A DNA stretch of 64,000 nt from Dehalococcoidia bacterium (lineage in GTDB: Bacteria; Chloroflexota; Dehalococcoidia; UBA6926). The stretch spans positions 32,001-96,000 of the forward strand of contig CAXXET010000008.1 of the NCBI GenBank assembly GCA_963666115.2, given 5' to 3'. This document shows, one piece after another, positions 1-57,437 of this stretch (position 1 is its first letter; each line of letters starts with the position of its first letter). The notes under the pieces were generated by a model, which saw nothing but the letters and a program-made list of their open reading frames with translations, did not search any database and was not told the DNA's origin. The position numbers and the translations under genes are program-made.

Positions 1-440
1 CCGGCTACGCCCTGGCAGACCAGGGAAATTACCACCTGGCCGAGCCTGATGAGGCGCACGTGTCGTACAACTCGTCGCCGCCAACCTCCGGCCCTCACAT
101 GCCGGGTCTTGCCCCGGCCCAGATCTACAATGAGCAAGTCCCGGACGAGTTCCAGGTCCATAATCTGGAGGACGGCTTTGTCAACGTCCAATACGACTGC
201 CCGGACGGATGCCCCGATCTCGTCGCCCAGCTAACCGACGTCGTGAATGAGTACATTGGCGAACCGGAGGGGCGCATCCTCATGGGGCCCTACGCCGGAA
301 TCACCGATCCCGTCACCGGTCAGAGCCGCCGCATCGCCCTCACGGCGTGGACGCGGCTGGACGCCTTTGACGAGTTTGACGTAGAGCGCATCCGCGCGTT
401 CATCGACGCCTACATGGGCATCGATCACCACGTGCCCTGA
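1..440 (+). CDS. DUF3105-like protein, 5'-truncated by window edge
   Basis: Frame open from window start; YNSSPPTSGPH, VHNLEDG.V.VQY.C and IALTAW motifs. Confidence 0.75.
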   Translation, partial: GYALADQGNYHLAEPDEAHVSYNSSPPTSGPHMPGLAPAQIYNEQVPDEFQVHNLEDGFVNVQYDCPDGCPDLVAQLTDVVNEYIGEPEGRILMGPYAGITDPVTGQSRRIALTAWTRLDAFDEFDVERIRAFIDAYMGIDHHVP

Positions 441-458
441 CGACCGGACTATTCGGCG

Positions 459-1370
459 CTAGACGAGCCGGTAGCCGCGGAAGCGGCTGTTCACCTCTCG
501 CAGCGCCCCGCCCAGCTCCGCGACAACCAGGATCACCAACGCCGTGACGTATATCCACGTGAGCAGGATGACGACGGATGCCAGCGAGCCGTACACAGCG
601 TCAAAGCTCCCGAAGTTCGTCAGGTAGAACAGGAAGAGGTTTTTCACGGTTTCCAGCGAGAGTCCGGCAATGGCCGCCGCCGGGACGCAGTACCGCCACG
701 GCGTGCGGTCGCTCGGCAGCCAGCGGTAGAGCATCAGCATCGCAAGGAACACGCTGACCAGGGACAAGGCGCCCAGGATAACCCGTTCGCCTGAGTCAAC
801 AAGGTGCGCGAACTCCCCCAGCCAGCCGCTCGCCGTTATTCCCTCCGCCGCGTGGACGAACGTCGAGCCCGCCAGGGACAACAGCATCAGCCCGCTGACG
901 CCCACGACCATCGTGAGAGACTTCATCCGCACAAGGTGGAAGGCAAACGGGTTCGCCACGCCCCACGCGCGGTCCATGAACCGCGTCATTGCGCCGAAGA
1001 CGTTGCTGCCGGACCAAGCGAGCGCCAACAGCGAAACGAGGCCGACTGCGCCGCGAGACTGCACGATGGCGTCCACGTTGTCGTCGATGAGTTCCTGTTC
1101 CATCGGCAAATACTGCGAAATGATCGCGTGAACCTCCTTCACCACCGTGTCCGTGTCGAAGACGAAGCTCAGCACGGTGATAGAGAAGAGGAGCAGCGGC
1201 AGGATGGCCAGCACCCCGTAGTAGCCGACGGCTGCCGCCATATCCCCCACGCCGTGCGAGGCGGCATTGCGAATCATGACGACGACGACCGCCGTCGGCT
1301 TGAAGCTTTCGAGGACGACGATGACGCCGTGGCCGATGCGCCCCGCCAGTCTGGTGAGTGACCTAAACAC
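459..1370 (-). CDS. YihY/BrkB family membrane protein
   Basis: Several TM helices; AAAVGYYGVLAILPLL and YGSLASVVILLTWIY motifs. Confidence 0.85.
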   Translation of the reverse strand: MFRSLTRLAGRIGHGVIVVLESFKPTAVVVVMIRNAASHGVGDMAAAVGYYGVLAILPLLLFSITVLSFVFDTDTVVKEVHAIISQYLPMEQELIDDNVDAIVQSRGAVGLVSLLALAWSGSNVFGAMTRFMDRAWGVANPFAFHLVRMKSLTMVVGVSGLMLLSLAGSTFVHAAEGITASGWLGEFAHLVDSGERVILGALSLVSVFLAMLMLYRWLPSDRTPWRYCVPAAAIAGLSLETVKNLFLFYLTNFGSFDAVYGSLASVVILLTWIYVTALVILVVAELGGALREVNSRFRGYRLV

Positions 1371-1467
1371 CCCTCCAGCTTATCGGCATTCCGCCGTTCG
1401 CGCCGCCCGGCGCGCCAGCCATGTATCATTGACTGCGAGCAGATGCACAGGAAAAGGGGTGTGGCGC

Positions 1468-2328
1468 ATGTTTGAGACGATTGGCAGGAGTTGGCGGCTC
1501 TTCAAGCTCTGCCTCCATGTCCTGAGCGTTGACAAGGAACTGATCTTCTTCCCGATCTTCTCCACGATCGGCCTGGTCTTCGTCACGCTGACGTTCATCG
1601 GCGTCACGTTTGGCATCGGCTCGTTCGAGAGGATGGAAGCGGGCACGACCAACGCCCTCGATCTCCTGATGATCTTCCTGCTGTACGTCTTCGCCTACTT
1701 CGTCGTCATTTTCTTCAACGCCGCCCTCGTCTTCGCCGCGCATGAGCGGCTGGAGGGCGGAGACCCCAACATTCGCTCCGGCCTCGCCGGCGCATCAAGC
1801 CGTGTCGTCACCATCTTCCTGTGGTCCATCATCGCTGCAACCGTGGGCCTGATCCTCCAGATCCTGTCCAGCCAGGCGCGCGAGCAGGGCGGCATCATGG
1901 GCATCATCGGGCAAATCGTCATTGCGCTCATCGGCGCGGCGTGGTCGCTGATCACGTTCTTCGTCGTCCCGCTCATCGTCATCGAGCACCGCGGATTGGC
2001 GGATTCGTTCAAGACGTCGTTCGCCCTGCTCAAGAGGACGTGGGGCGAGCAGGTCGTCGGAAACTTCGGGCTGGGCCTCCTGCAGCTGGGCGCAACCCTG
2101 CTGGCGCTCCTCGTCGCGTTCATCCTCTTCCTGGCCCTGTCACCGCTCGGCACGGCCGGCATCATCACGGCCGTCGTGATTGGCGCCGTTCTCGTCGCGG
2201 GCGTCTCACTCGTCTTTGCCACGCTGAACGGCATCTACAAGGCCGCCCTGTACAACTACGCTGCGGACGGCCAGGTGCCGTCGCTGTTCACGGACGACAC
2301 CATCCGGGGCGCGTTCCGCCAGCGCTAG
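1468..2328 (+). CDS. Conserved membrane protein (DUF6159-like)
   Basis: ATG 1468 after AAAGGGG; DKELIFFP and KRTWGE motifs; many TM segments. Confidence 0.7.
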   Translation: MFETIGRSWRLFKLCLHVLSVDKELIFFPIFSTIGLVFVTLTFIGVTFGIGSFERMEAGTTNALDLLMIFLLYVFAYFVVIFFNAALVFAAHERLEGGDPNIRSGLAGASSRVVTIFLWSIIAATVGLILQILSSQAREQGGIMGIIGQIVIALIGAAWSLITFFVVPLIVIEHRGLADSFKTSFALLKRTWGEQVVGNFGLGLLQLGATLLALLVAFILFLALSPLGTAGIITAVVIGAVLVAGVSLVFATLNGIYKAALYNYAADGQVPSLFTDDTIRGAFRQR

Positions 2329-2354
2329 GACACACGTCGAAAGGGAGTGGGGAG

Positions 2355-3551
2355 ATGGACTTTCGATTCAGCGCAGAGGAAGAGGCTCTTCGCGCCGAGG
2401 CGGCGGAGTTCGTCCGGCAGGAGTGGCGGCACAACAACAAGGACGCCTACAGCATGATCGTCGCCTCGTACGACGTGGATGACGTCGACGAGGAAGAGCG
2501 GATGCACGCCTACGCAAAGAAGCTGGCCGCGAAGGGCTGGTTCACGATGCACTGGCCGAAGGAGTTCGGCGGGTGGGGCGCGCCGCTCAGCACGCAGATG
2601 GCATACCGCGAGGCGATGGCCTATGCGGGCTCGCCGGAGATACTGGGCGGCGGAATGTTCGCGCCCATGCTGATGATGCACGGCGCGGACTGGCAGCGCG
2701 AGTTCTTCCTGCCCCGCATCGCAAGCGGAGAGATTCACCACCTCTCACAGGGCTTCTCCGAACCCAACGCCGGTTCCGACCTCGCCAACGTGCAGACCCG
2801 CGCGATCGAGGACGGCGACGATTTCGTCTTGAACGGACAAAAAATCTGGAACTCGGAGGGGCGCTGGGCGGATTGGGGGCATTACCTTGTCCGAACGGAT
2901 ACGGACGCGCCCAAGCACCGTGGCATCTCCTACTTCATCATCGACATGAACGACCCCGGCGTGACGCTCCGGCCGCTCTACGACGGGCTGGGACGGTGGC
3001 GCTGGAGCGAGGTGTTCCTGGAGGACGTGCGCGTTCCCAAGCGCAACCTGATCGGCGAACTGAACCGCGGCTTCTACACAGCGATGACGACGCTGAGCTT
3101 CGAGCGCTCACAGGTGGAGATTCCGGCGCGCCTGCAGCGTTACATGGAGCAGTTTATCGAGGCCTACGAGGAACGCGGGGAGGCGGGGCTTGACACCGTG
3201 CTGGACGACCCCGTCGCCCGGCACAAGCTGGCGGATTTGCGCGTGCAGATAGAGACGACGCGGATGCTCTGTTACCGCGTCGCGTGGCTCCAGACGCAGG
3301 GGCAGGTGCCGGACAGGGAAGCCTCCATGGTGAAGGTGACCGGCGACGAGGTTGGCTGGAACGTGTACAACGTGCTGGCGCAGCTGGCGGGCGACGACGC
3401 GCTGATTGCGCCGCGCGGCAGCCGGTTCGCGCCGATGAACGGCTTTCTGGGCGCGAACGCGTGGCTCACGCGCGGCCTCGCCATCGGCGGCGGCACCGAC
3501 GAAGTCCAGCGCAACATCATAGCCCAACGCGGCCTGGGGTTGCCGAGATAG
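2355..3551 (+). CDS. Acyl-CoA dehydrogenase family protein
   Basis: MDFRFSAEE start; QGFSEPNAGSDLA, LNGQKIWNS, IGGGTDEVQRNII. Confidence 0.92.
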   Translation: MDFRFSAEEEALRAEAAEFVRQEWRHNNKDAYSMIVASYDVDDVDEEERMHAYAKKLAAKGWFTMHWPKEFGGWGAPLSTQMAYREAMAYAGSPEILGGGMFAPMLMMHGADWQREFFLPRIASGEIHHLSQGFSEPNAGSDLANVQTRAIEDGDDFVLNGQKIWNSEGRWADWGHYLVRTDTDAPKHRGISYFIIDMNDPGVTLRPLYDGLGRWRWSEVFLEDVRVPKRNLIGELNRGFYTAMTTLSFERSQVEIPARLQRYMEQFIEAYEERGEAGLDTVLDDPVARHKLADLRVQIETTRMLCYRVAWLQTQGQVPDREASMVKVTGDEVGWNVYNVLAQLAGDDALIAPRGSRFAPMNGFLGANAWLTRGLAIGGGTDEVQRNIIAQRGLGLPR

Positions 3552-3567
3552 GCACCCAACCAACGCG

Positions 3568-3646
3568 CCTATAATCAACCATGCTTGGCACCTCGTTTGA
3601 GAACCTCATCACCCCTGATGAAGCGGCCTCAAAGGCAGCAACATAG
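3568..3646 (+). repeat. Copy 1 of a promoter/leader segment (CCTATAATCAACCATGC + PDEAA-encoding stub)
   Basis: 17-bp exact match to 35298-35314; ATG 3581 reads MLGTSFENLITPDEAASKAAT*, versus MPNSQTEPPAPDEAAAEIAAN at 35311. Confidence 0.7.
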
Positions 3647-3655
3647 AAAAGCACC

Positions 3656-5389
3656 ATGAATCGTAGCGCAAAGGTCCTCGGCATATTCGGCATGATTGCG
3701 CTAGTGATCCTGGGCTTCGCACTGGCATTCAATCAATTTTCGCCTCGCCAAGAACCTGTAGTCGCGCCTTCTCCTACAATCACTGCAGAGCCTAAGGTTA
3801 CGCTGACTCCTACACCTGCCGCGACATCCCAAGTCCTTACATCGACTCCCGTGCCGGTTGTGACAACACCGCCCTTCACACCGTCCCCCGCACCGACTGC
3901 TACATCATCATTTGTCCTCACGGCAACACCTGCTCCAACTCCTTCGTCTGAACCAGAATTAGATTTGGTGGCAGCGCGAATTGCAGCGAGGAACTTGAAA
4001 GACCAAATGCAAGCTGTGTATTACATCTGCACGCAATCTTCCTGTGGCACGGCATCCTACGTGAAATTCGCAGAGCCTGGTGGTTCCGTCTCTTACTACA
4101 TCCTCACTGCTGCCCATATATTGTGTGACGACGATGGTGATGCCTGCTCGCATACCGCTGCGGTGCGGAGGGTCTCTATCGGCGAGCCGACCGGTTGGTA
4201 CGAGACACGAGTGGTTCATATCGACTGGGCTAAGGACGTGGCTTTGCTAAATCCCGTTACCGAATTGCGCCAAGTCTATGCTTCACATGGCGTCAGCCTA
4301 GAAAGAGAGTGGTTTGACACTGCTTTGCCGGTGGGAGAGCTCCCATCACGCGGAGCAAGCATGGTCGCCATCGCGTCAAATGGGCTGAAAATCGAAATGA
4401 CAAATGACAGGGAAAGCTATTCTGGCTCTTGTTCAAGACCGGACTACTGTGCACCAGTCTTGGGGCAGGCGTTGAATGGCACATCGGGTAGTCCCGTAAT
4501 TGACGCCCATGGCAGAGTCGTTGGCATTATCACCGGTGGGTGGGAGAGTGACCGTCAGCATATCGTTATTGCTACCGGAGATGGGATCTTGAGGGCTATA
4601 AGGGATGCTCCGACATCCACGACAACTACGCCGCCACCAACACTCTCGGTCCCATGGACACCAGCGCCCGTCCCCACAGCAACACCTATCCTAACGCCAA
4701 CATCTGATCCTGACTCGGACTCCATCATTCGTGAAACGACCTCAGTACCGTTGTTGTTGGGATACAAGATGCATGCTGTGTACCAGATTTGCACCCTGAA
4801 AGCTTGTGGCACAGCGTCCTACGTTAGATTCACAGAGCTTGACGGTTCCGTCTCTTACTTCATCCTCACCGCCGCTCATGTACTTTGCATCGATAATGGC
4901 ACTAGATGCTCACACAACGCTGGGGTGCGAAGGACGGTTGTAGGCGCGACCGGTTGGTATGAGACACAATTGCTTTATGTTGATTGGTCTAAAGATATTG
5001 CGTTGCTAAGTCCAGTCGACGAATTCACATTGCAGTACCGTTATGATTACAGCATAATCACATTCGAATACAAATGGTTTGACGCCGCTTTATCACTAGC
5101 ATTTCTTCCGCCACGTGGGGCGGCATTGACCGCTATCGCATCGAATGCGTTCACTATCGAAATGGTCAATAATAAGGCATCCTATTGGGGCTCTTGTTCA
5201 AGTCTGGACTATTGTGAGCCGGTATTGGGTGAGGCAGTAGATGGCATGGCAGGTAGCCCTGTGGTTGATAGATTTGGCAAAATCGTCGGTATCGTCACCA
5301 GAGGATGGAAGAGCGATCGTCAACATGTTGCGATTGTCACCGGCGACGGAATTTGGCGGGCTATAAGGGACTTTCAAGATAGCCAGTAA
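3656..5389 (+). CDS. Membrane-anchored/secreted protein with two trypsin-like serine protease domains and Pro/Thr linkers
   Basis: N-terminal TM; ILTAAH, D(V/I)ALL, G(TS/MA)GSPV each occur twice; lower GC than flanks. Confidence 0.8.
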   Translation: MNRSAKVLGIFGMIALVILGFALAFNQFSPRQEPVVAPSPTITAEPKVTLTPTPAATSQVLTSTPVPVVTTPPFTPSPAPTATSSFVLTATPAPTPSSEPELDLVAARIAARNLKDQMQAVYYICTQSSCGTASYVKFAEPGGSVSYYILTAAHILCDDDGDACSHTAAVRRVSIGEPTGWYETRVVHIDWAKDVALLNPVTELRQVYASHGVSLEREWFDTALPVGELPSRGASMVAIASNGLKIEMTNDRESYSGSCSRPDYCAPVLGQALNGTSGSPVIDAHGRVVGIITGGWESDRQHIVIATGDGILRAIRDAPTSTTTTPPPTLSVPWTPAPVPTATPILTPTSDPDSDSIIRETTSVPLLLGYKMHAVYQICTLKACGTASYVRFTELDGSVSYFILTAAHVLCIDNGTRCSHNAGVRRTVVGATGWYETQLLYVDWSKDIALLSPVDEFTLQYRYDYSIITFEYKWFDAALSLAFLPPRGAALTAIASNAFTIEMVNNKASYWGSCSSLDYCEPVLGEAVDGMAGSPVVDRFGKIVGIVTRGWKSDRQHVAIVTGDGIWRAIRDFQDSQ

Positions 5390-50946: not shown

Positions 50947-52092
50947 ATGAGCGTTGCGGAAGGACGATACGCGCCGGGAACTGTACGGGACGGCATCGTG
51001 CTGGTGCTTTCGCGGAGCGCGGCGCCGCTGCCGGTTCGTGAGATTGAGCGCCGCGTCACAGAGGTCATCGGCCCCACGCCTGCTTCGTCCGTCAGATCGT
51101 TCCTCAGGCTGAACACGCCGAACCTGTTCGTGCGAGAAGCGCGAGGCGTGTACAAGCTGAGCGCGACCGATTCCCTGGGCGCGCAGACCCCAATCACCGA
51201 CGGCGCGGGATGGGAAGACCGGTTTACATACGGCGACGCAACGCTCTATCGCGCGGATTGCCTGACGTGGCTCGACCATCGAGAGGACAATAGCTTGCAC
51301 GCCGTGGTGACTGATCCACCGTTCGGCCTGCACGAGTATTCGGCAGAGCAGCAGGCAAAGCTGCGGGCAGGGCGGGGCGGCGTGTGGCGCATCCCGCCCG
51401 CGTTCGACGGGGTCGCCCGCTCCGCCGTGCCGCGATTCACGACGATGAACGAGGAGCAGATACTGGAGCTTCGCGCGTTCTTCTTCACGTGGGCGCGGAT
51501 GCTGCGTCCCAAACTGGTGCCGGGCGCGAACGTCATTGTCGCCTCGAATCCCCTGCTGTCCTACGTGGCGTCCGACGCGCTGGCGGATGCCGGATTGGAA
51601 CGCCGCGGAGAGATCGTGCGGTTAACGATGACCCTTCGCGGCGGGGATCGGCCAAAGGCGGCGCATGAAGAGTTTCCCGACGTGAGCGTCATGCCGCGCT
51701 CCATGTGGGAGCCGTGGCTTGTCTTTCGCAAGCCGCTGGAGGGAAGCGTCAGGGAGAACCTGCGCAAATGGGGAACGGGCGGGTTCCGCCGGCCAAGCCC
51801 CACCAGCCCATTTGGCGACGTAATCCGGTCGGCGCCCACGCGCAAGGCGGAACGAGACCTTGCGCCGCATCCCAACCTCAAGCCGCAAGCGTTCCTGCGC
51901 ACCATCGTGCGGGCCGCCCTGCCGCTTGGGACGGGCGTGATCCTCGACCCGTTTGCCGGGTCAGGCTCGACGCTTGCCGCCGCCGAGGCCGTTGGCTACC
52001 GGAGCGTCGGCATCGAGCGGGACGAAATCTACTTTGACATGGCAAAAGAGGCTATCCCAAAGCTGAGGCGCTTGGGCGTCAGGCAGGATTAG
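50947..52092 (+). CDS. Amino (N6-A/N4-C) DNA methyltransferase, beta-class motif order, with N-terminal wHTH-like domain
   Basis: VTDPPF, HPNLKP, LDPFAGSGST; N-terminal LPVREI...ASSVRSFL. Confidence 0.88.
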   Translation: MSVAEGRYAPGTVRDGIVLVLSRSAAPLPVREIERRVTEVIGPTPASSVRSFLRLNTPNLFVREARGVYKLSATDSLGAQTPITDGAGWEDRFTYGDATLYRADCLTWLDHREDNSLHAVVTDPPFGLHEYSAEQQAKLRAGRGGVWRIPPAFDGVARSAVPRFTTMNEEQILELRAFFFTWARMLRPKLVPGANVIVASNPLLSYVASDALADAGLERRGEIVRLTMTLRGGDRPKAAHEEFPDVSVMPRSMWEPWLVFRKPLEGSVRENLRKWGTGGFRRPSPTSPFGDVIRSAPTRKAERDLAPHPNLKPQAFLRTIVRAALPLGTGVILDPFAGSGSTLAAAEAVGYRSVGIERDEIYFDMAKEAIPKLRRLGVRQD

Positions 52093-52696
52093 GCTCCTTG
52101 TAAACCCAACTTTCGCGCAGTCTGCGGATACCGTCTTTGTGCAGTGTGGCGGTTCGCGTTCCCAATTCGCTCCGGGCGTTGCGCCGAAAATCATCCACGG
52201 TTACCTGGCCGAGATAGACCTCTGTGAACGTGAGCGGCGTGCGATCACGCGCGGGCTCAGTCGTGTTGTCCACGGTATGCACGAATACGCACAGCCACTG
52301 GTCACGCGCACCGTGCGTGTCGACGGCCCCGCCCGCCTTCCTCGTTGACTTTACCTCCACGCCCTGCTCCCCGGACTGGACGGCATTGTTGGGGTAGACA
52401 CCCTGCACGACCAGGTCAGGATGGCCGTTGTGGAACCGGTTTGCGGTAAGCGTGCGGGCGTGCGTGGCCAGTGAAGCTGTCAGCATGTCTGAGAGCAAGC
52501 CGGACAGGGCGGCGGGCCGCAGCATATCGTCCAGCCGCTCCAGGCCCCGCTCAATCAGGCGTGAGTTCACGTCGAAGAAGAAGTCATAGACATCCTGCAT
52601 GGCGAGCTGGAAATCCTCTACTCGCAGCCCGTACGGCAGGGGCAGAGCTTGGTTGAAATTCGCAGTGCGGACTTCGTTGCGTGGAGTTTGAGTCAC
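52079..52696 (-). CDS. Putative type II restriction endonuclease
   Basis: HPDL...GVEVKST motif; convergent, 14-bp overlap with the MTase. Confidence 0.65.
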   Translation of the reverse strand: MTQTPRNEVRTANFNQALPLPYGLRVEDFQLAMQDVYDFFFDVNSRLIERGLERLDDMLRPAALSGLLSDMLTASLATHARTLTANRFHNGHPDLVVQGVYPNNAVQSGEQGVEVKSTRKAGGAVDTHGARDQWLCVFVHTVDNTTEPARDRTPLTFTEVYLGQVTVDDFRRNARSELGTRTATLHKDGIRRLRESWVYKEPNPA

Positions 52697-52713: not shown

Positions 52714-53553
52714 CTACTCACTCTGAGGTCCCCCCTCCAGCATCCGCCACCACCCCGCCAGATCCGCCGCCGCCTGCAGCAGCTGCCCCGGCCGACGTAT
52801 CCCGTCCTCCGTGATCACGTGATCCACGTATTCCGGCGGGATGATGTCCAGTTCAGGGGATGATGCGCCGTCGCGTGACGCCGGCAGCCATGGCGCCAGC
52901 TTGAGTGTGTCCGCGAAGAAATGGACGGGCACGGGCGAGTCGCGCCGCGCAGCCGCCTCCACCAGCGCAAGCGTCCCCGCGTCCGCCGCCATCGACCCGT
53001 CCGCCAGGAACGCCGTGCAGCCGAGCAGCACGATGTCGCACCCGGCAAGCGCATCACTAATGTCGCTGTGTGAGTCCCCGCCGGCTCCGTTTGGGGAAAG
53101 TCCCCCAACCGTGCGGAGCTCCCGGATCCCGTCTCCGGCCAGCGCAATGGCCGCCCGCACACTCTCAGACCGCCCCAGCGTCGTGACCGTCGCGCCCTCC
53201 TCGATGAGCGGCTGCCCCCGCCGACCGAGCGATGCCGGCGTGTCCCCCAGCAGCCGCGCCAGCCGCGCCACGCTCCGCGCCGCCGCCGCCATCCGATCCC
53301 CGGACCGCGCCTCCCGCGCCGTCCGGTAAGCCGAAACCCCCACGTTTCGTATCGCCACAACCTCCGGGCGCGCCTCCGCAATCGTGAACGCGATCTCCCG
53401 CAGCGGCTCCGGCTCGCCGATATACATTTCCGTCAACGCGCGATGCAGCAGCCGCGCGCCCCGCGCCGCGATGCCCACCGCCGTGTCGGAGCGCTCATCA
53501 CGCAGGGCGTCCGCCTCCCGCGCCAGCTCATCCCACTCCATCGGCGCCCTCAT
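52714..53553 (-). CDS. Degenerate eIF-2B-like (IF-2B family) protein
   Basis: ARPEVVAIRN, VTTLGRSESV, DIVLLGC, DIIPPEYVDHVITEDG. Confidence 0.65.
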   Translation of the reverse strand: MRAPMEWDELAREADALRDERSDTAVGIAARGARLLHRALTEMYIGEPEPLREIAFTIAEARPEVVAIRNVGVSAYRTAREARSGDRMAAAARSVARLARLLGDTPASLGRRGQPLIEEGATVTTLGRSESVRAAIALAGDGIRELRTVGGLSPNGAGGDSHSDISDALAGCDIVLLGCTAFLADGSMAADAGTLALVEAAARRDSPVPVHFFADTLKLAPWLPASRDGASSPELDIIPPEYVDHVITEDGIRRPGQLLQAAADLAGWWRMLEGGPQSE

Positions 53554-54425
53554 TCCCCGTCCGCCTCGGAACGCGTCAGGATCACGTTGTCCAACAGCCG
53601 CGTCCGCCCAATACGCACGGCAGTCGATGCCATCGCCCCGTCCGCTGCATCGCCCTCGACCTCTTGGAGCGTCAGCGCGTCCGCCACGGAAACGTAGTCG
53701 ATAGACGCGATGAGCGGCTCCGCATCCAGCGTGGAGCGCATCGCCTCACGGAGCGCGTCCGCCCGCGCCTCACCCTCGCGATAGAGGTCCAATGCCGCCG
53801 TCAACGCGCGGTACACAACCGGCGCGGCCTGCCGCTCCTCCACTGTCAGATACGTATTGCGGCTGGACATGGCGAGGCCGTCCGGCTCCCGCACCGTTGG
53901 CGCGACGACAATCTCCCCCGGCACGTTCAGATCGCGAACCATGCGCCGCACGACGGCGACCTGTTGCCCGTCCTTCTGTCCGAAATACGAACGATCCGGC
54001 TGCACGATATTGAACAGCTTGAGCACCACGGTCGCCACGCCCATAAAATGCCCGGGCCGCACGGCCCCCTCCAGCCGGCTGGCAATATCCCCCGGCACGA
54101 CGTAGACGTCCTGCTCCGGCGGCGGATACATCTCTTCGGGCGTGGGATGGAAGACCAGGTCGCACCCCGCCGCGTCCAGCATCGCCAGATCTCTCTCCAG
54201 GTCGCGCGGATAAGCCGCAAAGTCCTCGTTGGGGGCGAACTGCGCCGGATTCACAAAGATCGACGCCGCGACGACGGCATTCTCCGCCCGCGCCCGCCGC
54301 ACAAGCGAGATATGCCCCTCATGCAGAAACCCCATAGTCGGCACAAACCCAAGCCCCCCCGCCAAGCGCGCGAAGCCCCGCGCACGGCGGAAGTCTTGGA
54401 CAGTTGTGATTAGCTGTAAGGCCAT
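53550..54425 (-). CDS. panC: Pantoate-beta-alanine ligase
   Basis: FVPTMGFLHEGH, RPGHF.GVATVV.KLF, FGQKD, GLAMSSRN. Confidence 0.97.
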   Translation of the reverse strand: MALQLITTVQDFRRARGFARLAGGLGFVPTMGFLHEGHISLVRRARAENAVVAASIFVNPAQFAPNEDFAAYPRDLERDLAMLDAAGCDLVFHPTPEEMYPPPEQDVYVVPGDIASRLEGAVRPGHFMGVATVVLKLFNIVQPDRSYFGQKDGQQVAVVRRMVRDLNVPGEIVVAPTVREPDGLAMSSRNTYLTVEERQAAPVVYRALTAALDLYREGEARADALREAMRSTLDAEPLIASIDYVSVADALTLQEVEGDAADGAMASTAVRIGRTRLLDNVILTRSEADGE

Positions 54426-54615
54426 GACATCTCAGGACATTGTACGGGCGCAAGCGTGGCATTGTCGGGGGGAAATGGTGGGGCGCGAACGGCGTCGGCC
54501 CGAAATTGTCCAGGAAACTGGGGCTAACAGCAGGGTCATCAGCGGCAATAATGGTAGTCCGCCACTGTCGGATCGTCATCGGCGGCGGCAAGTCTGAATG
54601 AAAGGAGGTGAAAGC

Positions 54616-54786
54616 ATGGTACAAAATGACGAGGCGGTGAGGCGGTCGAACCAGTTGAACCCGAACAACCGGGAATACTGGAGGTCGCGAGGGTTCAATG
54701 ACCGCCCGACGGATTGGCGGAAGCGGGCAAAGGCGCAGCAGCCCCAACCGAACCGGCAGGCCAAGACGAACAACCGGAAGAAGTAA
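54616..54786 (+). CDS. 56-aa basic Asn/Gln-rich protein with NQLNPNN..YW.SRG motif
   Basis: Very strong RBS AAAGGAGGTGA; MVQNDEAVRRSNQLNPNNREYWRSRG. Confidence 0.75.
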   Translation: MVQNDEAVRRSNQLNPNNREYWRSRGFNDRPTDWRKRAKAQQPQPNRQAKTNNRKK

Positions 54787-54794
54787 GGAACGGA

Positions 54795-54850
54795 CGGGAG
54801 TGCCGGCGGCCCTGGGCGACTGGCGCTCCCGCAATGCAGGCGTGATTGCG
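54795..54850 (+). other. Two adjacent hairpins between peptide gene and HTH-TPR gene
   Basis: CGGGAGTGCCGG...CTGGCGCTCCCG (with G-U pairs) and CGCAAT...ATTGCG; no U-tract. Confidence 0.5.
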
Positions 54851-54857
54851 AGGGGCA

Positions 54858-56507
54858 ATGACTGAACCGCTGAATTCTGGGTTGGGAATCCATGGGCGGC
54901 AACTGCTTGGCCAGGCTGTCAGGCTCTTGCGGCTGGATCACGATGACCTCAAGTCAAGGACCGCGCGGCGCTTCTTTTCGGGAGCCGAAGTCAATACGTT
55001 CGATCACAACCAGATTATGTCTGCCGTCGCCGAGTCCCTTCTACGCAGCGGTATCTTGCCAGAATCCATCGTTACCTATCCAAGGATCACCCATACCGAC
55101 ATCTTGAAGGTCGCCATCGAGCATTGGGTCAACCGATGGGATCAGATGATTGCGTTTCTCCAGAACGAAACGGGAGGCAGCGAGCATCCGGCTGTGATTG
55201 TAGAAGGAATCGTTCGCCTGCAGATCATCGACCTCTCCCTGCGCGTCTTTTCAGCCTTGCGTCTTGGCGGAACTGAAATTGGCGCCCAAAAGAAGATGCC
55301 GTGGGCGCGCAAGGACGGGACAAAGAGGATTTTGCGTGCGCTGGTACGCGACGCCGGAATCACCCGCGACCAGTTGGCTCGGGAAGTGGCAGTATCTGAA
55401 ACGACAGTCGACAATTGGCTGGATGGCAAAGCCCTACCGTCTGCCCAGAACGCCAAGGTGATTGCCGGGGAGATAGGGCGTCGACATCCGAAATGGAACT
55501 TGCATGAGATCGAAAACGACCTGCGGTTAGCCCGCCTGTTTTCGGAGATGGGCAAGCGATTGGAATTTCTGGTTGATTCGAGCAAATTCGAGTCATTTGC
55601 TGATGCGCTGGTTCGGTTCGTGTATCGGCTAAACATGGATGTGCGACGCTCGGGCAGGCCGCCAATCCAGGAAGTCTCAGGCTTGGAGGCACAGACCCTC
55701 GTCTATGGAGTCGAATGCCCGCAAATCCATTCGCTATTGGAGAATCTGGCCCGCAAGGAGCGCGATCCTGAATGGAAGCGCTATATTCGTGCGGCGAACC
55801 AGAACTGGCGCTTCGCCCTGCAAGCCCTCTCAGCACAGGCGGCAGGCGACCAAATGGCAGCAGGTTTGGCTCAAGAGCCGCCACAGTCTGAATCCGATCC
55901 GCCGCCCGACAGGCTCAAAGATCTGATTCCCAAGTCATTGGCCCGACTGCCCGTCAGTTCAGATTTACGTGAGATGATTCTCGACATCGCAAGGGCGGCG
56001 GACTCACGACGGGCCCTGGTAAAGGACTACCCATTGAGCGCCAGGGCGCACATGGCATTGGGGTCTTTCCTGGGCATGATGGCCAAGCACCGCCAGAACC
56101 GGCAGATGCTTGAAGAGGGTATCGCTGAATGCCACATCGCAGCGGAATTAGCGCCTGGCTGGGATAATCCGGCCGTGGAACCGGGGATAATCCTCGCGAA
56201 TGTTGGGGAGTTCAATCGGGCGCTGGAGGAACTGGATGAGGCTGAGAGCCGCTTGGGCGCGCCGACTCCTCACCTGAATCATGTTAGGGGCTACGTGCTC
56301 ATGGAGCTTGGCCGTCATGGACAAGCGCTAGAGAATTTTGAAAGCGCCATTGAGTCCGCCCCGGAGTTTGCGCGAGCGTATCTCTACGGCGCTCGCTGTG
56401 CATTTGCCGTGGGGGACAAGCGCGCGGGTATTCGCTACGCGAAAGCCGCCCGTAGGTTTGGAGAACCGGGCGAGTACATCGCATGGAAGCTAGGCAAATA
56501 TCGCTAG
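54858..56507 (+). CDS. Protein with central XRE-type HTH and C-terminal TPR-like repeats
   Basis: GITRDQLAREVAVSETTVDNWLDGKALP; RGYVLMELGRHGQALENFESAI..APEFARAYL. Confidence 0.75.
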   Translation: MTEPLNSGLGIHGRQLLGQAVRLLRLDHDDLKSRTARRFFSGAEVNTFDHNQIMSAVAESLLRSGILPESIVTYPRITHTDILKVAIEHWVNRWDQMIAFLQNETGGSEHPAVIVEGIVRLQIIDLSLRVFSALRLGGTEIGAQKKMPWARKDGTKRILRALVRDAGITRDQLAREVAVSETTVDNWLDGKALPSAQNAKVIAGEIGRRHPKWNLHEIENDLRLARLFSEMGKRLEFLVDSSKFESFADALVRFVYRLNMDVRRSGRPPIQEVSGLEAQTLVYGVECPQIHSLLENLARKERDPEWKRYIRAANQNWRFALQALSAQAAGDQMAAGLAQEPPQSESDPPPDRLKDLIPKSLARLPVSSDLREMILDIARAADSRRALVKDYPLSARAHMALGSFLGMMAKHRQNRQMLEEGIAECHIAAELAPGWDNPAVEPGIILANVGEFNRALEELDEAESRLGAPTPHLNHVRGYVLMELGRHGQALENFESAIESAPEFARAYLYGARCAFAVGDKRAGIRYAKAARRFGEPGEYIAWKLGKYR

Positions 56508-56518
56508 AGCCTCCCCCC

Positions 56519-57307
56519 TCACCACCCCGCCACAAAATCCAGCTCCAGCCGGATGTTGTCCTCCAGGCTCACGATGAAGAACAGATCCGGAACCTCCATC
56601 TCGAACTCCCCGAACGTGAAATTCGTCTTCGCCGTGCCTGCCACGCTGGCGCCGTCAAACGTGGCGACAGTTTCCCACGCGACGGGCCGCGTCACCTCCC
56701 GCACCGTCAGGTCCCCGTTGATCGTGAACTCCGCCTCGCCCGATGTTGGCAGCGGCCACGCGAGCCCATCGATGCTCGTGGCCACGAACACGATCTCCGG
56801 ATAGGTCGCCGTTTCGATGGCGTTGCGTCGCAGATAGCGGTCGCGATTCTCCTCGTCGCTCTTCAGGCTCGCCGCGTTCAGCACGATGCGCGAACCCTCC
56901 GGCACAATCTTCCCGTCCGCCGCAAACGTGAACGCCCCCGTCACCTCCGTCGTCTCGCCGATAGCGTCAAAAGGCAGCTCGACGTTCGCCAACTCCTCAC
57001 GAATCAGGTAACGTGCTGCGGTCCCCTCCTCGAGCGTCGCGGTGAGACCCTCAGCGGGCACCTCGTCATCCACGGCGCCCCCGCTCGCTGGAGTGGCCGC
57101 ATCATCCTCAGTCACCATAGTCGGCATGGCGGTCGGCGGGGCAGCCGTGGGAATTGCAGTCGCCGTGGCCGTCGGGCTGGCGGCGGCCTCGTCGCCGTCG
57201 TCATCCGACTCGCTGCCCGTGCCGCACGCGGCAGCCAACACGGCCACCATCAGAGCCGCCGCAATCACCACCAATAGCCGCGCTGAAACGATGCCGTGCC
57301 TGTCCAT
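56519..57307 (-). CDS. YceI-like lipoprotein
   Basis: Lipobox LAAAC; SLKSDEENRD.YLR, YPEIVF, GDLTVREVT. Confidence 0.85.
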   Translation of the reverse strand: MDRHGIVSARLLVVIAAALMVAVLAAACGTGSESDDDGDEAAASPTATATAIPTAAPPTAMPTMVTEDDAATPASGGAVDDEVPAEGLTATLEEGTAARYLIREELANVELPFDAIGETTEVTGAFTFAADGKIVPEGSRIVLNAASLKSDEENRDRYLRRNAIETATYPEIVFVATSIDGLAWPLPTSGEAEFTINGDLTVREVTRPVAWETVATFDGASVAGTAKTNFTFGEFEMEVPDLFFIVSLEDNIRLELDFVAGW

Positions 57308-57437
57308 GGAGATACCTGTTCCTTGTGTCCTGGGCGTGGGTGTCAAACACAAGCATACGGGCGAGGAACGCCCCGCGCACGCCCTGATTTGCATGAGGCG
57401 CAATCCTCTGGCAACTGCGCGGTAGAATTAACGGACG

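Follow-up and report, generated by a model that had tools for sequence, protein, structure and literature searches.

The islet between panC and a yceI-like gene on a Dehalococcoidia contig encodes a 56-aa protein, with a conserved motif centred on NPNN, and, downstream, a 549-aa protein with an XRE-type helix-turn-helix (HTH) and a C-terminal TPR array. The two genes constitute a conserved module and are not chance neighbours. The regulator family and a dyad box upstream travel together, and the gene between them is exchangeable. With a probability of roughly 55%, we take the module to be an autoregulated XRE-TPR transcription-factor cassette with swappable cargo, in which the NPNN protein would be the output rather than a ligand of the regulator.

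Organization and location of the islet

The window is the whole 64-kb stretch (64,000 nucleotides) of DNA analysed, and the islet and its flanks contain the following features.

53550-54425, minus strand: panC (Pfam E 1e-103)
54503-54528, plus strand: conserved dyad box with the core TTGTCCAGGAAACTGGGGCT (54506-54525); abuts the -35 and is the putative operator for the regulator
54524-54552, plus strand: promoter-like site from a consensus scan; -35-like CTAACA, 17-nt spacer, -10-like AATAAT
54604-54610, plus strand: Shine-Dalgarno sequence GGAGGTG, read from the sequence, 5 nt upstream of the small-ORF ATG
54616-54786, plus strand: gene for the 56-aa protein of the NPNN-motif family; extremely hydrophilic product, pI 11.7, GRAVY about -2.2
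54795-54831, plus strand: GC-rich stem-loop; 18-nt-arm inverted repeat in a 71-nt spacer, no U-tract behind it
54858-56507, plus strand: XRE-HTH/TPR regulator gene; 549 aa from the ATG, or 553 aa from an alternative TTG at 54846
54858-55298, plus strand: N-terminal helical domain of the regulator, residues 1-147; conserved RTARRFF.G and WD motifs
55302-55502, plus strand: XRE-type HTH, residues 149-215 (Pfam, fold searches and conservation)
56040-56489, plus strand: C-terminal TPR array, about residues 395-544 (Pfam below cut-off, model helices and Foldseek)
56519-57403, minus strand: YceI-domain gene (Pfam E 7e-18)

Pfam confirms both flanking genes, and with them the location given in a preliminary description of this DNA. 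The panC-yceI distance is 2.09 kb here. Among 21 other genomes of the genus, the gap is ~80-270 nt in nine and ~0.9-1.4 kb, with other cargo, in eight; the remaining four have no yceI match within the stretch examined. The peptide-regulator module is accessory and located in a variable panC/yceI hotspot. A methylase and putative nuclease gene pair is present at 50947-52696, with two housekeeping genes between this pair and the regulator.

The NPNN protein family

The small ORF had been credited with a very strong RBS, and inspection of the sequence agrees. An alternative 62-aa reading, from 54598, has no comparable Shine-Dalgarno, and most peptide-linked loci have a GGAGG-type sequence in front of their homologous ORF (in L056 it is GGGAGG). 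The conserved core has a median dN/dS of 0.11 (37 usable of 105 pairs). Together, the strong Shine-Dalgarno and the dN/dS of about 0.11 indicate that the small ORF is a real gene.

The family to which its product belongs is uncharacterised and is defined here from an alignment of 15 homologues. Twelve positions are invariant (Q13, N15, P16, N17, N18, Y21, W22, R25, G26, R30, P31 and W34), all of which are present in the window protein, and the conserved ~30 residues can be written as N-Q-x-N-P-N-N-x-x-Y-W-x-x-R-G-x-x-x-R-P-x-x-W. The motif NQxNPNN..YW.SRG, named in the preliminary description, is real, as the alignment documents, and it is widespread; a profile search identified 1359 cluster representatives at E ≤ 1e-3, with the window protein at E 1.6e-18, far more than a word-based search with the window peptide, which returned only itself and one relative. 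The motif also occurs in tandem-repeat, secreted and eukaryote-like protein forms. At regulator loci, the NPNN proteins have 49-58 residues and, from their composition, GRAVY values of -1.8 to -2.35. Neither a hydrophobic nor a signal segment is seen by GRAVY and hydropathy of these sequences, consistent with the earlier statement that the window peptide has no signal sequence. No model in Pfam, NCBIfam or PADLOC matches the NPNN peptide, and one NPNN repeat protein has a weak, below cut-off match to Pfam Phage_30_3 (E 2.8e-4). A profile of the peptide alignment matched solved structures only over a chance-level stretch (E 1.1), a protein atlas queried with the peptide returned unnamed clusters at 0.85-0.88 that are leads only, and none of the papers listed in literature searches for the motif was relevant.

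Most NPNN genes are not adjacent to a regulator gene. In the class sample, 9 of the 12 genomes with a peptide gene lack a regulator homologue (E ≤ 1e-20), the regulator family being present in 7 of the 401 genomes sampled. The source genome itself has a second, solo NPNN copy, on contig 1, and copies are present on plasmids of Pseudomonas, Thioclava, Cereibacter and Vibrio. The three plasmid copies examined are near helicase/HNH, AbiEii or TIR genes, and have neither the regulator nor the box. Viral contigs contain no relative of the regulator and the NPNN motif at two loci only, and the motif was not found in phage records.

The XRE-HTH/TPR regulator

Pfam, an AlphaFold2 model and fold searches support the architecture initially proposed for the ~549-aa protein, namely an unassigned N-domain, a central HTH and a TPR-like end, and they place the HTH at residues 149-215, not at the N-terminus. 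With the 553-aa form as query, Pfam locates the HTH at residues 160-211 (HTH_24 above, HTH_31 and HTH_3 below cut-off) and TPR matches, all below cut-offs, at residues 447-538. The model (pLDDT 86, pTM 0.82) has paired helices at the TPR end and about 180 helical residues between the HTH and the canonical TPRs. VIA-align matches to the HTH include C.EcoT38IS (Z 9.9), then Aca10, ClgR, ImmR, the N-terminal domain of CapH, DdrO and PlcR, and Foldseek matches the TPR end, at E 3e-5 to 1e-3, to APC/C TPR subunits, MamA and OGT. A wide VIA-align fold search returned no match confined to N-domain residues 8-147, and the protein atlas no usable match for this domain, a result that does not in itself establish a new fold.

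The regulator family comprises 91 protein clusters at E 3e-30 or better, with query coverage of 97-100% for most and of 55-86% for the six weakest matches. Alignment of 52 sequences has 23 invariant columns, and within the HTH, residues T182, V184, D185, N186 and W187 show little or no variation in the family. The window regulator has all of the family hallmarks, RTARRFF.G and WD in the N-domain, ..VDNWLDG.. in the HTH and WDNPAVEPG in the TPR region.

An exchangeable cargo slot

Of 34 readable loci, 15 have an NPNN gene directly upstream of, and on the same strand as, a regulator homologue, and all are from Dehalococcoidia/Chloroflexota. Many of the loci are relatives, so the counts are not independent. 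The 15 are 10 of 23 genome-contig loci, 3 of 4 readable metagenome loci, L065 and the window. The linkage spans regulators that are only 24-43% identical. Other loci have a different gene in the same slot. This is a prokaryotic viperin (pVip) in nine loci, two of which were scanned with PADLOC (E 4e-90 and 6e-85), an Smr-domain protein in six (Pfam Smr 2e-9 and 3e-11 in the two scanned) and an unrelated 45-aa basic protein in two; in a further two, nothing recognisable is present. In a profile scan of all loci, the NPNN motif was absent from the viperin, Smr and other small cargo. The source genome contains both types of arrangement as, on contig 6, a paralogous regulator gene lies behind the box and directly downstream of a viperin gene, identified by its homology to the scanned orthologous pVips.

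Cargo also differs between related regulators. In a quick, midpoint-rooted tree, in which the window row is on a long branch, the closely related regulators of L055 and L047 have end branches of 0.18 and 0.19 changes per column, and yet they are associated with different small proteins. In L044, a duplicated box and a 5′ fragment of an Smr gene flank an inserted LRR gene, an arrangement that looks like the footprint of a cargo exchange.

The suggestion that the pair is a peptide-receptor module is thus only partly sustained. The pairing is conserved, and tabulating the neighbours of the peptide family, as had been advised, reveals linkage to HTH/TPR genes at 15 loci; the family is nevertheless mostly unlinked, and the receptor idea is weakened because other loci have a viperin, an Smr protein or a small protein unrelated to the NPNN family in the slot behind the same box.

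The dyad box and promoter

The box has a ~20 bp consensus, TTGTCCA-N6-cTtGgGCt. As its initial detection relied on a 5-mer anchor in the 260 nt upstream, five of its columns are conserved by construction, and the independently conserved columns are the flanking ones only, namely 13 (T), 15 and 17 (G), 18 (C) and 6 (A). In 26 loci, which include all four cargo types, the box begins 79-110 nt ahead of the start codon of the cargo, and 20 of these 26 have a -10-like TAnnnT hexamer at a constant offset of +40/+41 relative to the box (+41 in the window). The promoter consensus scan found two sites, with 0.9 expected.

A PWM built from the box identifies one site, on the same strand and upstream of the cargo, in 31 of 36 regulator loci. 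For three of the five exceptions, the upstream DNA is absent from the contig; the other two, L050 and the probably decayed L042, have neither a box nor recognisable cargo. All five held-out loci (L026, L062, L067, L071 and the genome's own C6) score 25.8 or more. Within the 64-kb window, the box is the only site with a score of 15 or more, and in the 2.07-Mb genome just two sites reach the training minimum of 21.9, one in the window operon and one ahead of the operon that pairs a viperin gene with a regulator gene in the same genome; no other site scores above 17.1. The PWM scan detected no box at 12 unlinked peptide loci or at the three plasmid peptide loci. The box is essentially unique to cargo-regulator operons. 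Its recogniser could be another factor or a special sigma factor, and not the neighbouring HTH.

The stem-loop between the genes

The preliminary description of a structured spacer is also borne out, by the 18-nt-arm inverted repeat and by a stem-loop in the same position in all 13 peptide-linked loci folded. The predicted folding energy of the spacer RNA is -40.2 kcal/mol over 91 nt, with a z of -2.68 relative to dinucleotide shuffles (2 of 200 shuffles equal it), and of only -1.44 by mononucleotide shuffles. Homologous structures are weak in L041 (z -0.45) and L046 (z +0.66). In a 12-sequence consensus structure, 7 of 12 pairs are preserved through double (compensatory) changes. A sequence scan of 54300-56700 found no canonical terminator. 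A stem-loop accompanies small-protein cargo in all 15 loci looked at; the folding covered small-protein loci, and for enzyme-cargo loci gene overlaps and short gaps were noted.

A model for the cassette

We envisage the islet as a self-contained operon of two genes that is horizontally mobile and has exchangeable cargo, arranged as a box-abutted promoter, a ~55-nt leader, the strongly translated NPNN gene, the stem-loop and the weakly initiated regulator gene. The regulator would use the invariant recognition motif of its HTH to bind the box and would control both the cargo and its own synthesis, and its TPR array would sense a protein or peptide signal, probably of infection or stress since the cargoes include viperin and Smr. 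The box centre is predicted at about -44 from the inferred transcription start, touching a poor -35, a position that fits activation and equally allows repression. The stem-loop may serve in attenuation or in protection of a transcript end, and in combination with the strong and weak ribosome-binding sites would make the NPNN protein far more abundant than the regulator. As the two boxes of the genome are nearly alike, the peptide and viperin operons may answer to the same regulator or regulators. The small protein reads as a regulated product because relatives carry a viperin or nuclease-type gene at its position, behind the same box. That it is output and not input we infer from this exchangeability, and the TPR domain may yet be subject to feedback from a cargo product.

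A more specific version of this model, which we offer as speculation and with little confidence, is a modular inducible immune or stress cassette. An operator-bound, TPR-sensing XRE factor would switch on whichever effector is plugged in, the NPNN protein would be a new small antiviral or stress effector, and the peptide and viperin operons would form one two-operon regulon.

Alternative interpretations

TPR arrays commonly bind short peptides, and the NPNN protein might be an intracellular ligand or anti-regulator that binds the TPR domain of its neighbour and switches DNA binding, with the stem-loop setting an excess of peptide, much as in an unsecreted version of RRNPP peptide signalling or in SinI/SinR. 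Adjacency maintained across the divergent regulators and the deep branches of the quick tree, a peptide with a conserved ~30-residue core, and a strong Shine-Dalgarno and stem-loop consistent with peptide excess would all be accommodated. The ligand interpretation is nonetheless unlikely. Proteins without the NPNN motif occupy the slot behind the same box, the related L055 and L047 regulators have different small partners, and most peptide genes, including the second one in this genome and those on plasmids, have no regulator. There is, furthermore, no clear charge complementarity between peptides and regulator domains (10 pairs, Pearson r -0.53 to +0.26). The exchangeable slot, the partners of L055 and L047 and the unlinked family appear to fit a regulated cargo better than a ligand.

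In HigBA, HicAB and MqsRA, the effector gene precedes the gene for an XRE-HTH protein, and the same order here raises the prospect of a toxin-antitoxin-like or abortive-infection pair, in which the upstream effector would be held by binding to the HTH-TPR protein and the regulator would repress at the box. Enzyme-cargo genes overlap or nearly abut the regulator gene, suggestive of coupled synthesis, the accessory hotspot is beside restriction-modification genes, and HicA and RelE toxin genes are reported, in bioRxiv 10.1101/2023.12.08.570793, to adjoin pVip genes. However, in most genomes that have it, the source genome included, an NPNN gene is found alone, which is unexpected for a toxin, and the stem-loop and weak ribosome-binding site would leave the 'antitoxin' scarcer than the 'toxin'. 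The regulator, at 549 aa, is not a small labile antitoxin, and the peptide is matched by no PADLOC or toxin family. We regard such a pair as slightly less probable than a ligand. By far the least credible explanation is that unrelated genes, one for a small stress protein and one for a TPR regulator, have come together by chance in a variable region. The very large size and mostly unlinked distribution of the NPNN family, and a panC/yceI hotspot that takes up varied genes, would be expected on that basis, but the same strand, a ~60-100-nt spacer, the stem-loop and the box would not be expected to recur, as they do, in 15 loci from divergent genomes with spacer GC contents of 47-73%. The autoregulated cassette with swappable cargo remains the reading that we favour.

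If so, the cassette would provide a defined regulator-operator pair that controls antiviral genes (viperin) in a class that is uncultured and abundant in the environment, and a first clue to the function of the NPNN motif family, with its 1359 cluster representatives. The genetic slot of this family is also used by two enzymes whose action interferes with processes of nucleic acids or of translation, and the natural cargo-swap series would then help to identify further small effectors through guilt by association. As a caution, a small ORF beside an HTH-TPR gene need not always encode a quorum-sensing-type peptide.

Comparison with known systems

RRNPP systems (PlcR/PapR, NprR/NprX, PrgX, Rgg/SHP, ComR/ComS, AimR/AimP and Rap/Phr) similarly combine an XRE HTH and a TPR-type array with an adjacent small ORF, and the window HTH superposes on PlcR (Z 7.2), PrgX (Z 6.3) and ComR (Z 6.3); XRE proteins outside the RRNPP group match it as well or better. 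The hallmarks of RRNPP systems are an N-terminal XRE HTH directly before the TPR-like domain, and an exported peptide precursor that is matured to a short signal, which occupies the TPR groove and thereby switches the regulator. In the window regulator, by contrast, the HTH is internal, behind a 147-aa helical domain, and the TPRs begin at about residue 395. The small ORF is upstream and, judged from its sequence for export, its product has no signal segment and a ~30-residue core that extends across the protein. The peptide slot can, moreover, hold enzymes, and the host is a member of the Chloroflexota and not of the Bacillota.

Toxin-first type II toxin-antitoxin systems (HigBA, HicAB and MqsRA) share with the window the order of a small or effector gene followed by that of an HTH protein and the location in an accessory island, and the HTH matches HigA, MqsA and HipB (Z 6.2-6.8). 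Such systems are autoregulated at an operator; the window has a promoter-proximal dyad box, at which autoregulation is putative. They differ in that the protein at the antitoxin position is here very large and has TPRs, the upstream NPNN gene is often alone and the expression signals favour the upstream product.

CapH/CapP of CBASS, BrxR/CapW and C proteins exemplify a dedicated DNA-binding protein, with a promoter-proximal site, encoded with an antiviral or accessory gene. The window HTH matches C.EcoT38IS (Z 9.9), C.Kpn2I (7.7), C.AhdI (7.5) and the N-terminal domain of CapH (7.8), and viperin is among the cargoes of the regulator family. Unlike these systems, the window module has neither a partner protease nor a WYL domain, the 549-aa regulator with its TPRs and N-domain is encoded downstream of the cargo, and the cargo includes tiny hydrophilic proteins outside the known defence families. 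The C proteins of restriction-modification systems are stand-alone HTHs of ~80 aa, encoded with and controlling a restriction gene, and with these the window regulator shares only the HTH fold.

In the accessible parts of the literature searched (pVip, viperin, Chloroflexota and TPR), an HTH-TPR partner of pVip was not found. The window module differs from pVip loci in having the NPNN gene in place of a radical-SAM gene, but regulators paralogous and orthologous to that of the window are encoded directly downstream of pVip, behind the same box.

The islet and its variable surroundings

The two plus-strand ORFs of the islet lie between the minus-strand panC and YceI-domain genes, and all parts reported in the preliminary description, namely these flanking genes, a 56-aa ORF with a strong ribosome-binding site (RBS), a structured spacer and a ~549-aa HTH/TPR protein, are present as described.

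Features of the islet
53550-54425, minus: panC (Pfam Pantoate_ligase, E 1e-103)
54616-54786, plus: small ORF, 56-aa NPNN protein; ATG with GGAGGTG 5 nt before it
From ATG 54858 (549 aa) or TTG 54846 (553 aa), plus: regulator ORF; recorded form (P0003) 549 aa
56519-57403, minus: YceI-domain gene (Pfam, E 7e-18)

A longer, 62-aa reading of the small ORF from 54598 has no RBS. The distance from panC to the yceI-like gene is 80-270 nt in 9 of 21 congeneric genomes, and 8 have ~0.9-1.4 kb of other cargo there, for example a 445-aa protein or a family-less protein of 244-257 aa that a small antitoxin-like ORF sometimes accompanies. In the remaining 4, no yceI match was found in the fetched stretch, 3 of them having DNA methyltransferase-like ORFs at this position. 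Given this variation among congeners, the islet is one filling of a variable hotspot. The 244-257-aa protein, for which there is no Pfam family, occupies the gap in L088, L094, L095, L102 and L104, accompanied in some genomes by a 66-84-aa ORF that resembles a small antitoxin-like protein. Two genes from the islet is a type II methyltransferase gene (50947-52092; PADLOC MTase_II, 3e-109), overlapped tail-to-tail by a convergent 205-aa ORF (52079-52696, minus) that has only a faint REase_II match (E 0.06) and has similarly placed homologues in two congeners (L087, L099); 50947-52696 is probably a small restriction-modification pair.

The NPNN small protein

The NPNN protein is extremely hydrophilic (GRAVY -2.2), and very basic in the window (pI 11.7), most relatives having a pI of 4.3-6.8. 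Fifteen homologues align easily, with 12 invariant positions (Q13, N15, P16, N17, N18, Y21, W22, R25, G26, R30, P31 and W34). Every peptide-linked homologue has a Shine-Dalgarno sequence before its start, GGAGG-type in most, and the median dN/dS of the 29-codon core is 0.11 (37 of 105 pairs with usable dS). Judged from these sequences, the small ORF is a protein-coding gene under purifying selection.

The motif, which the preliminary description had linked to uncharacterised small proteins, was verified: of 1.84 billion cluster representatives, 1359 match the family profile at E<=1e-3 and 387 at E<=1e-10. It is a large family of uncharacterised proteins, with no matching model in Pfam, NCBIfam or PADLOC and an informative name for none of 10 representatives checked. 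Many matches contain two to four copies of the motif, some start with a signal-peptide-like segment, and some are 500-700-aa low-complexity proteins of eukaryotic appearance, as read from sequence. Four such long proteins (P0113, P0134, P0175 and P0187) have two or three motifs followed by a conserved ...RPP.L.DAL..GH..L..EGH segment, and in P0187 three motifs are joined to a PLAC8-like cysteine-rich domain (Pfam E 2e-6, below cut-off).

The XRE-TPR regulator

A word-based search returned 91 regulator clusters at E 3e-30 or better, most being full-length homologues of ~560-600 aa with 29-43% identity (one 82%); the six weakest cover only 55-86% of the query. All named genome matches are Dehalococcoidia, Chloroflexota or SAR202, and a pattern-plus-tblastn search of a viral contig collection found no relative. 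The AlphaFold2 model is all-helical (pLDDT 86, pTM 0.82), and with it Foldseek finds only TPR proteins in the PDB (APC/C subunits, MamA, OGT). Residues 1-215, modelled separately (pLDDT 83), were aligned to 48,161 PDB representatives. By this structural alignment of a predicted model, residues 149-215 are a classic XRE HTH, with C.EcoT38IS (Z 9.9), Aca10, ClgR, ImmR, the CapH N-terminal domain, DdrO, P22 c2 and PlcR as best matches, and no match was confined to residues 8-147. The most conserved stretch of the family lies in the HTH (T182, V184, D185, N186, W187); the N-domain has the conserved motifs RTARRFF.G and W94-D95. In one genome (G235), two open frames of ~875 aa (L067, L071), each downstream of a prokaryotic viperin (pVip) gene and a box (see below), match the family in the N-domain and HTH only (profile positions 15-322).

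Occupants of the slot upstream of the regulator

The upstream gene was compared in 34 regulator loci with readable upstream DNA: 22 of 23 from genome contigs (L057 starts too near a contig end), 4 of 5 from metagenome contigs (L059 lacks its 5' end; L061 and L062 are near-identical), L065, L067 and L071, the same-genus L024-L026, a paralogue on contig 6 of the window's own genome, and the window.

Gene directly upstream of the regulator, on the same strand, in 34 loci
NPNN protein: 15 (L040, L041, L046, L048, L051-L056, L060-L062, L065, window)
Prokaryotic viperin: 9 (L035, L036, L043, L067, L071, L024-L026, own contig 6; PADLOC pVip E 4e-90 and 6e-85 in two loci scanned)
Smr-domain protein, 155-160 aa: 6 (L037-L039, L044, L045, L058; Pfam Smr 2e-9 and 3e-11 in two scanned)
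Unrelated 45-aa basic protein: 2 (L047, L049)
Nothing recognisable: 2 (L042, regulator seemingly frameshifted; L050)

As the NPNN gene adjoins the regulator in 15 of 34 loci, the pair is a genuine recurrent module. The proposed peptide-receptor module thus stands as a recurrent pair but not as an exclusive one, because the same slot also holds viperin, Smr or the 45-aa protein; the NPNN protein is merely one of several occupants. The 45-aa protein (L047, 3735-3872; L049, about 3630-3766) begins MAKSKG, is rich in G, K, A and S and matched no family model; its loci keep the same strong Shine-Dalgarno sequence, stem-loop and box.

The quick maximum-likelihood tree of 29 regulators, midpoint-rooted, with the careful search unfinished and the window on a long branch, has peptide-linked rows on all deep branches of its main clade. 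Smr- and viperin-linked groups are nested inside this clade, and the same-genus viperin-linked group is its sister. L047, with the 45-aa protein, is sister to the NPNN-linked L055 (end branches 0.19 and 0.18).

The viperin-regulator operon of the window's own genome (G000 contig 6, 245016-247721, minus) starts with a box and consists of a pVip gene (246766-247680) and an overlapping gene for a 586-aa regulator paralogue, 25% identical to that of the window. L044 has, at 48-3400, an extra box and a broken 5' Smr fragment 3.3 kb upstream of an intact box-Smr-regulator unit, with a gene for an 853-aa leucine-rich-repeat protein between the two boxes, and looks like a duplication left by insertion into a cassette.

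A conserved box and a putative promoter

Conservation among close relatives begins ~100 nt upstream of the peptide gene, and its core, sought in all loci, defined a box, ttTTGTCCA.t...cTtGgGCt, that is an imperfect dyad (GTCCA-N7-TGGGC). In 26 loci, irrespective of cargo, it begins 79-110 nt upstream of the start codon of the cargo gene. Five anchoring columns are conserved by construction; conservation independent of them is seen in the A that follows and in T, G, G and C of the second half-site (1.6-2.0 bits). When a weight matrix made from the 26 sites (lowest training score 21.9) was applied to 36 regulator loci, 31 had a single site, located upstream of the cargo and in the cargo's orientation, and 3 of the other 5 have no upstream DNA in the contig. 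All five held-out loci (L026, L062, L067, L071 and own contig 6) score 25.8 or more, and no site scoring 18 or more occurs in 12 unlinked peptide loci or 3 plasmid loci. Two sites in the 2.07-Mb genome reach 21.9, window 54503 and contig 6 position 247721, the latter just upstream of the viperin gene; the two are closely alike and the next best scores 17.1.

Of 26 loci, 20 have a TAnnnT hexamer at +40 or +41 relative to the box, and a consensus scan identified a promoter-like CTAACA-17-AATAAT at window 54524-54552. With this geometry, the second half-site touches a poor -35 element and the dyad centre is near -44 from the inferred start. In bacterial promoters generally, such a position suits an activator contacting RNA polymerase and equally allows repression.

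The stem-loop between the two genes

The 71-nt spacer contains an inverted repeat with 18-nt arms (54795-54831), and the predicted fold of 91 nt around it has -40.2 kcal/mol (z -2.68). There is no following T-run, and a scan found no canonical terminator. A long stem is the minimum-energy structure in all 13 peptide-linked spacers folded, with z at or below -2 in 8 and weaker in L041 (-0.45), L046 (+0.66), L061 (-1.16), the window (-1.44, mononucleotide shuffles) and L052 (-1.63). In a 12-sequence consensus with 12 pairs, 7 are maintained by double changes in one or more of the sequences. The stem-loop is also read in the sequences of both 45-aa-protein loci. In enzyme-cargo loci, the cargo and regulator genes overlap (own contig 6, L024, L025, L026, L035, L058) or have gaps of 18-70 nt.

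NPNN genes away from the regulator

Among 401 evenly sampled genomes of the class, 12 have the peptide, 7 the regulator and 3 the pair (own genome, G160 and G305). Seen from the regulator the linkage is frequent (15 of 34 loci), whereas the peptide occurs mostly without the regulator. The window's genome has a second, acidic NPNN copy, 44% identical (contig 1, 6153-6287, minus; L002 1486-1638), flanked by a MATE-like transporter gene and pth, a position kept in two congeners (L004, L005), with neither box nor regulator nearby. Unlinked peptide loci have no common neighbour gene, and on Proteobacterial plasmids the NPNN protein is a lone 'hypothetical protein'.

Proposed mechanism and alternatives

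The interpretation moves from a peptide receptor to a regulator with swappable cargo, in a locus more structured than the preliminary description recognised. We favour, with a probability of about 0.55, a mobile cassette with an operator-promoter, a cargo that can be exchanged and a transcription factor of XRE-TPR type, the factor controlling both the cargo and itself. The sequence comparisons show co-inheritance, exchange of cargo, specificity of the box and a fixed geometry of the promoter; we infer that the HTH binds the box, and likewise the direction in which control runs, the signal and what the peptide does. The TPR array would sense the signal, and the stem-loop, together with the contrast between strong and weak RBSs, would keep the small protein well in excess of the regulator.

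That the NPNN protein is instead an intracellular ligand or anti-regulator would fit the recurrent pair, but is unlikely with a slot that also takes enzymes. A toxin-first, toxin-antitoxin-like pair is somewhat less probable again: the upstream gene should then not be kept alone, an expectation that failed. Both are compatible with cargo feedback on the TPR domain. Chance neighbours, for which the many unlinked peptide genes might speak, are very improbable given the recurrence of the pair. For an uncultured class, the finding supplies an operator-regulator pair that is linked to viperin and can be tested directly, and it gives a first hint, from genetic context, about a very large family of uncharacterised mini-proteins.

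Comparison with known systems

In the material reached by full-text literature searching, neither the NPNN motif nor any HTH-TPR partner for pVip was found described, and the passages seen of 10.1101/2023.12.08.570793 and 10.1101/2025.09.30.679545 describe no such partner. HicA and RelE genes are reported beside pVip genes in the passages seen of the former, so that pVip often has a small neighbour (10.1101/2023.12.08.570793). The module resembles RRNPP systems, peptide-sensing HTH+TPR regulators, in parts list only. Their HTH is at the N-terminus and their peptide is an exported precursor; here, as the preliminary description maintained, these hallmarks are missing, the HTH being internal (149-215) and the small protein having no hydrophobic segment, and the module is therefore not filed under RRNPP. 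Closest in working to the proposed cassette are the dedicated regulators of accessory and defence operons.
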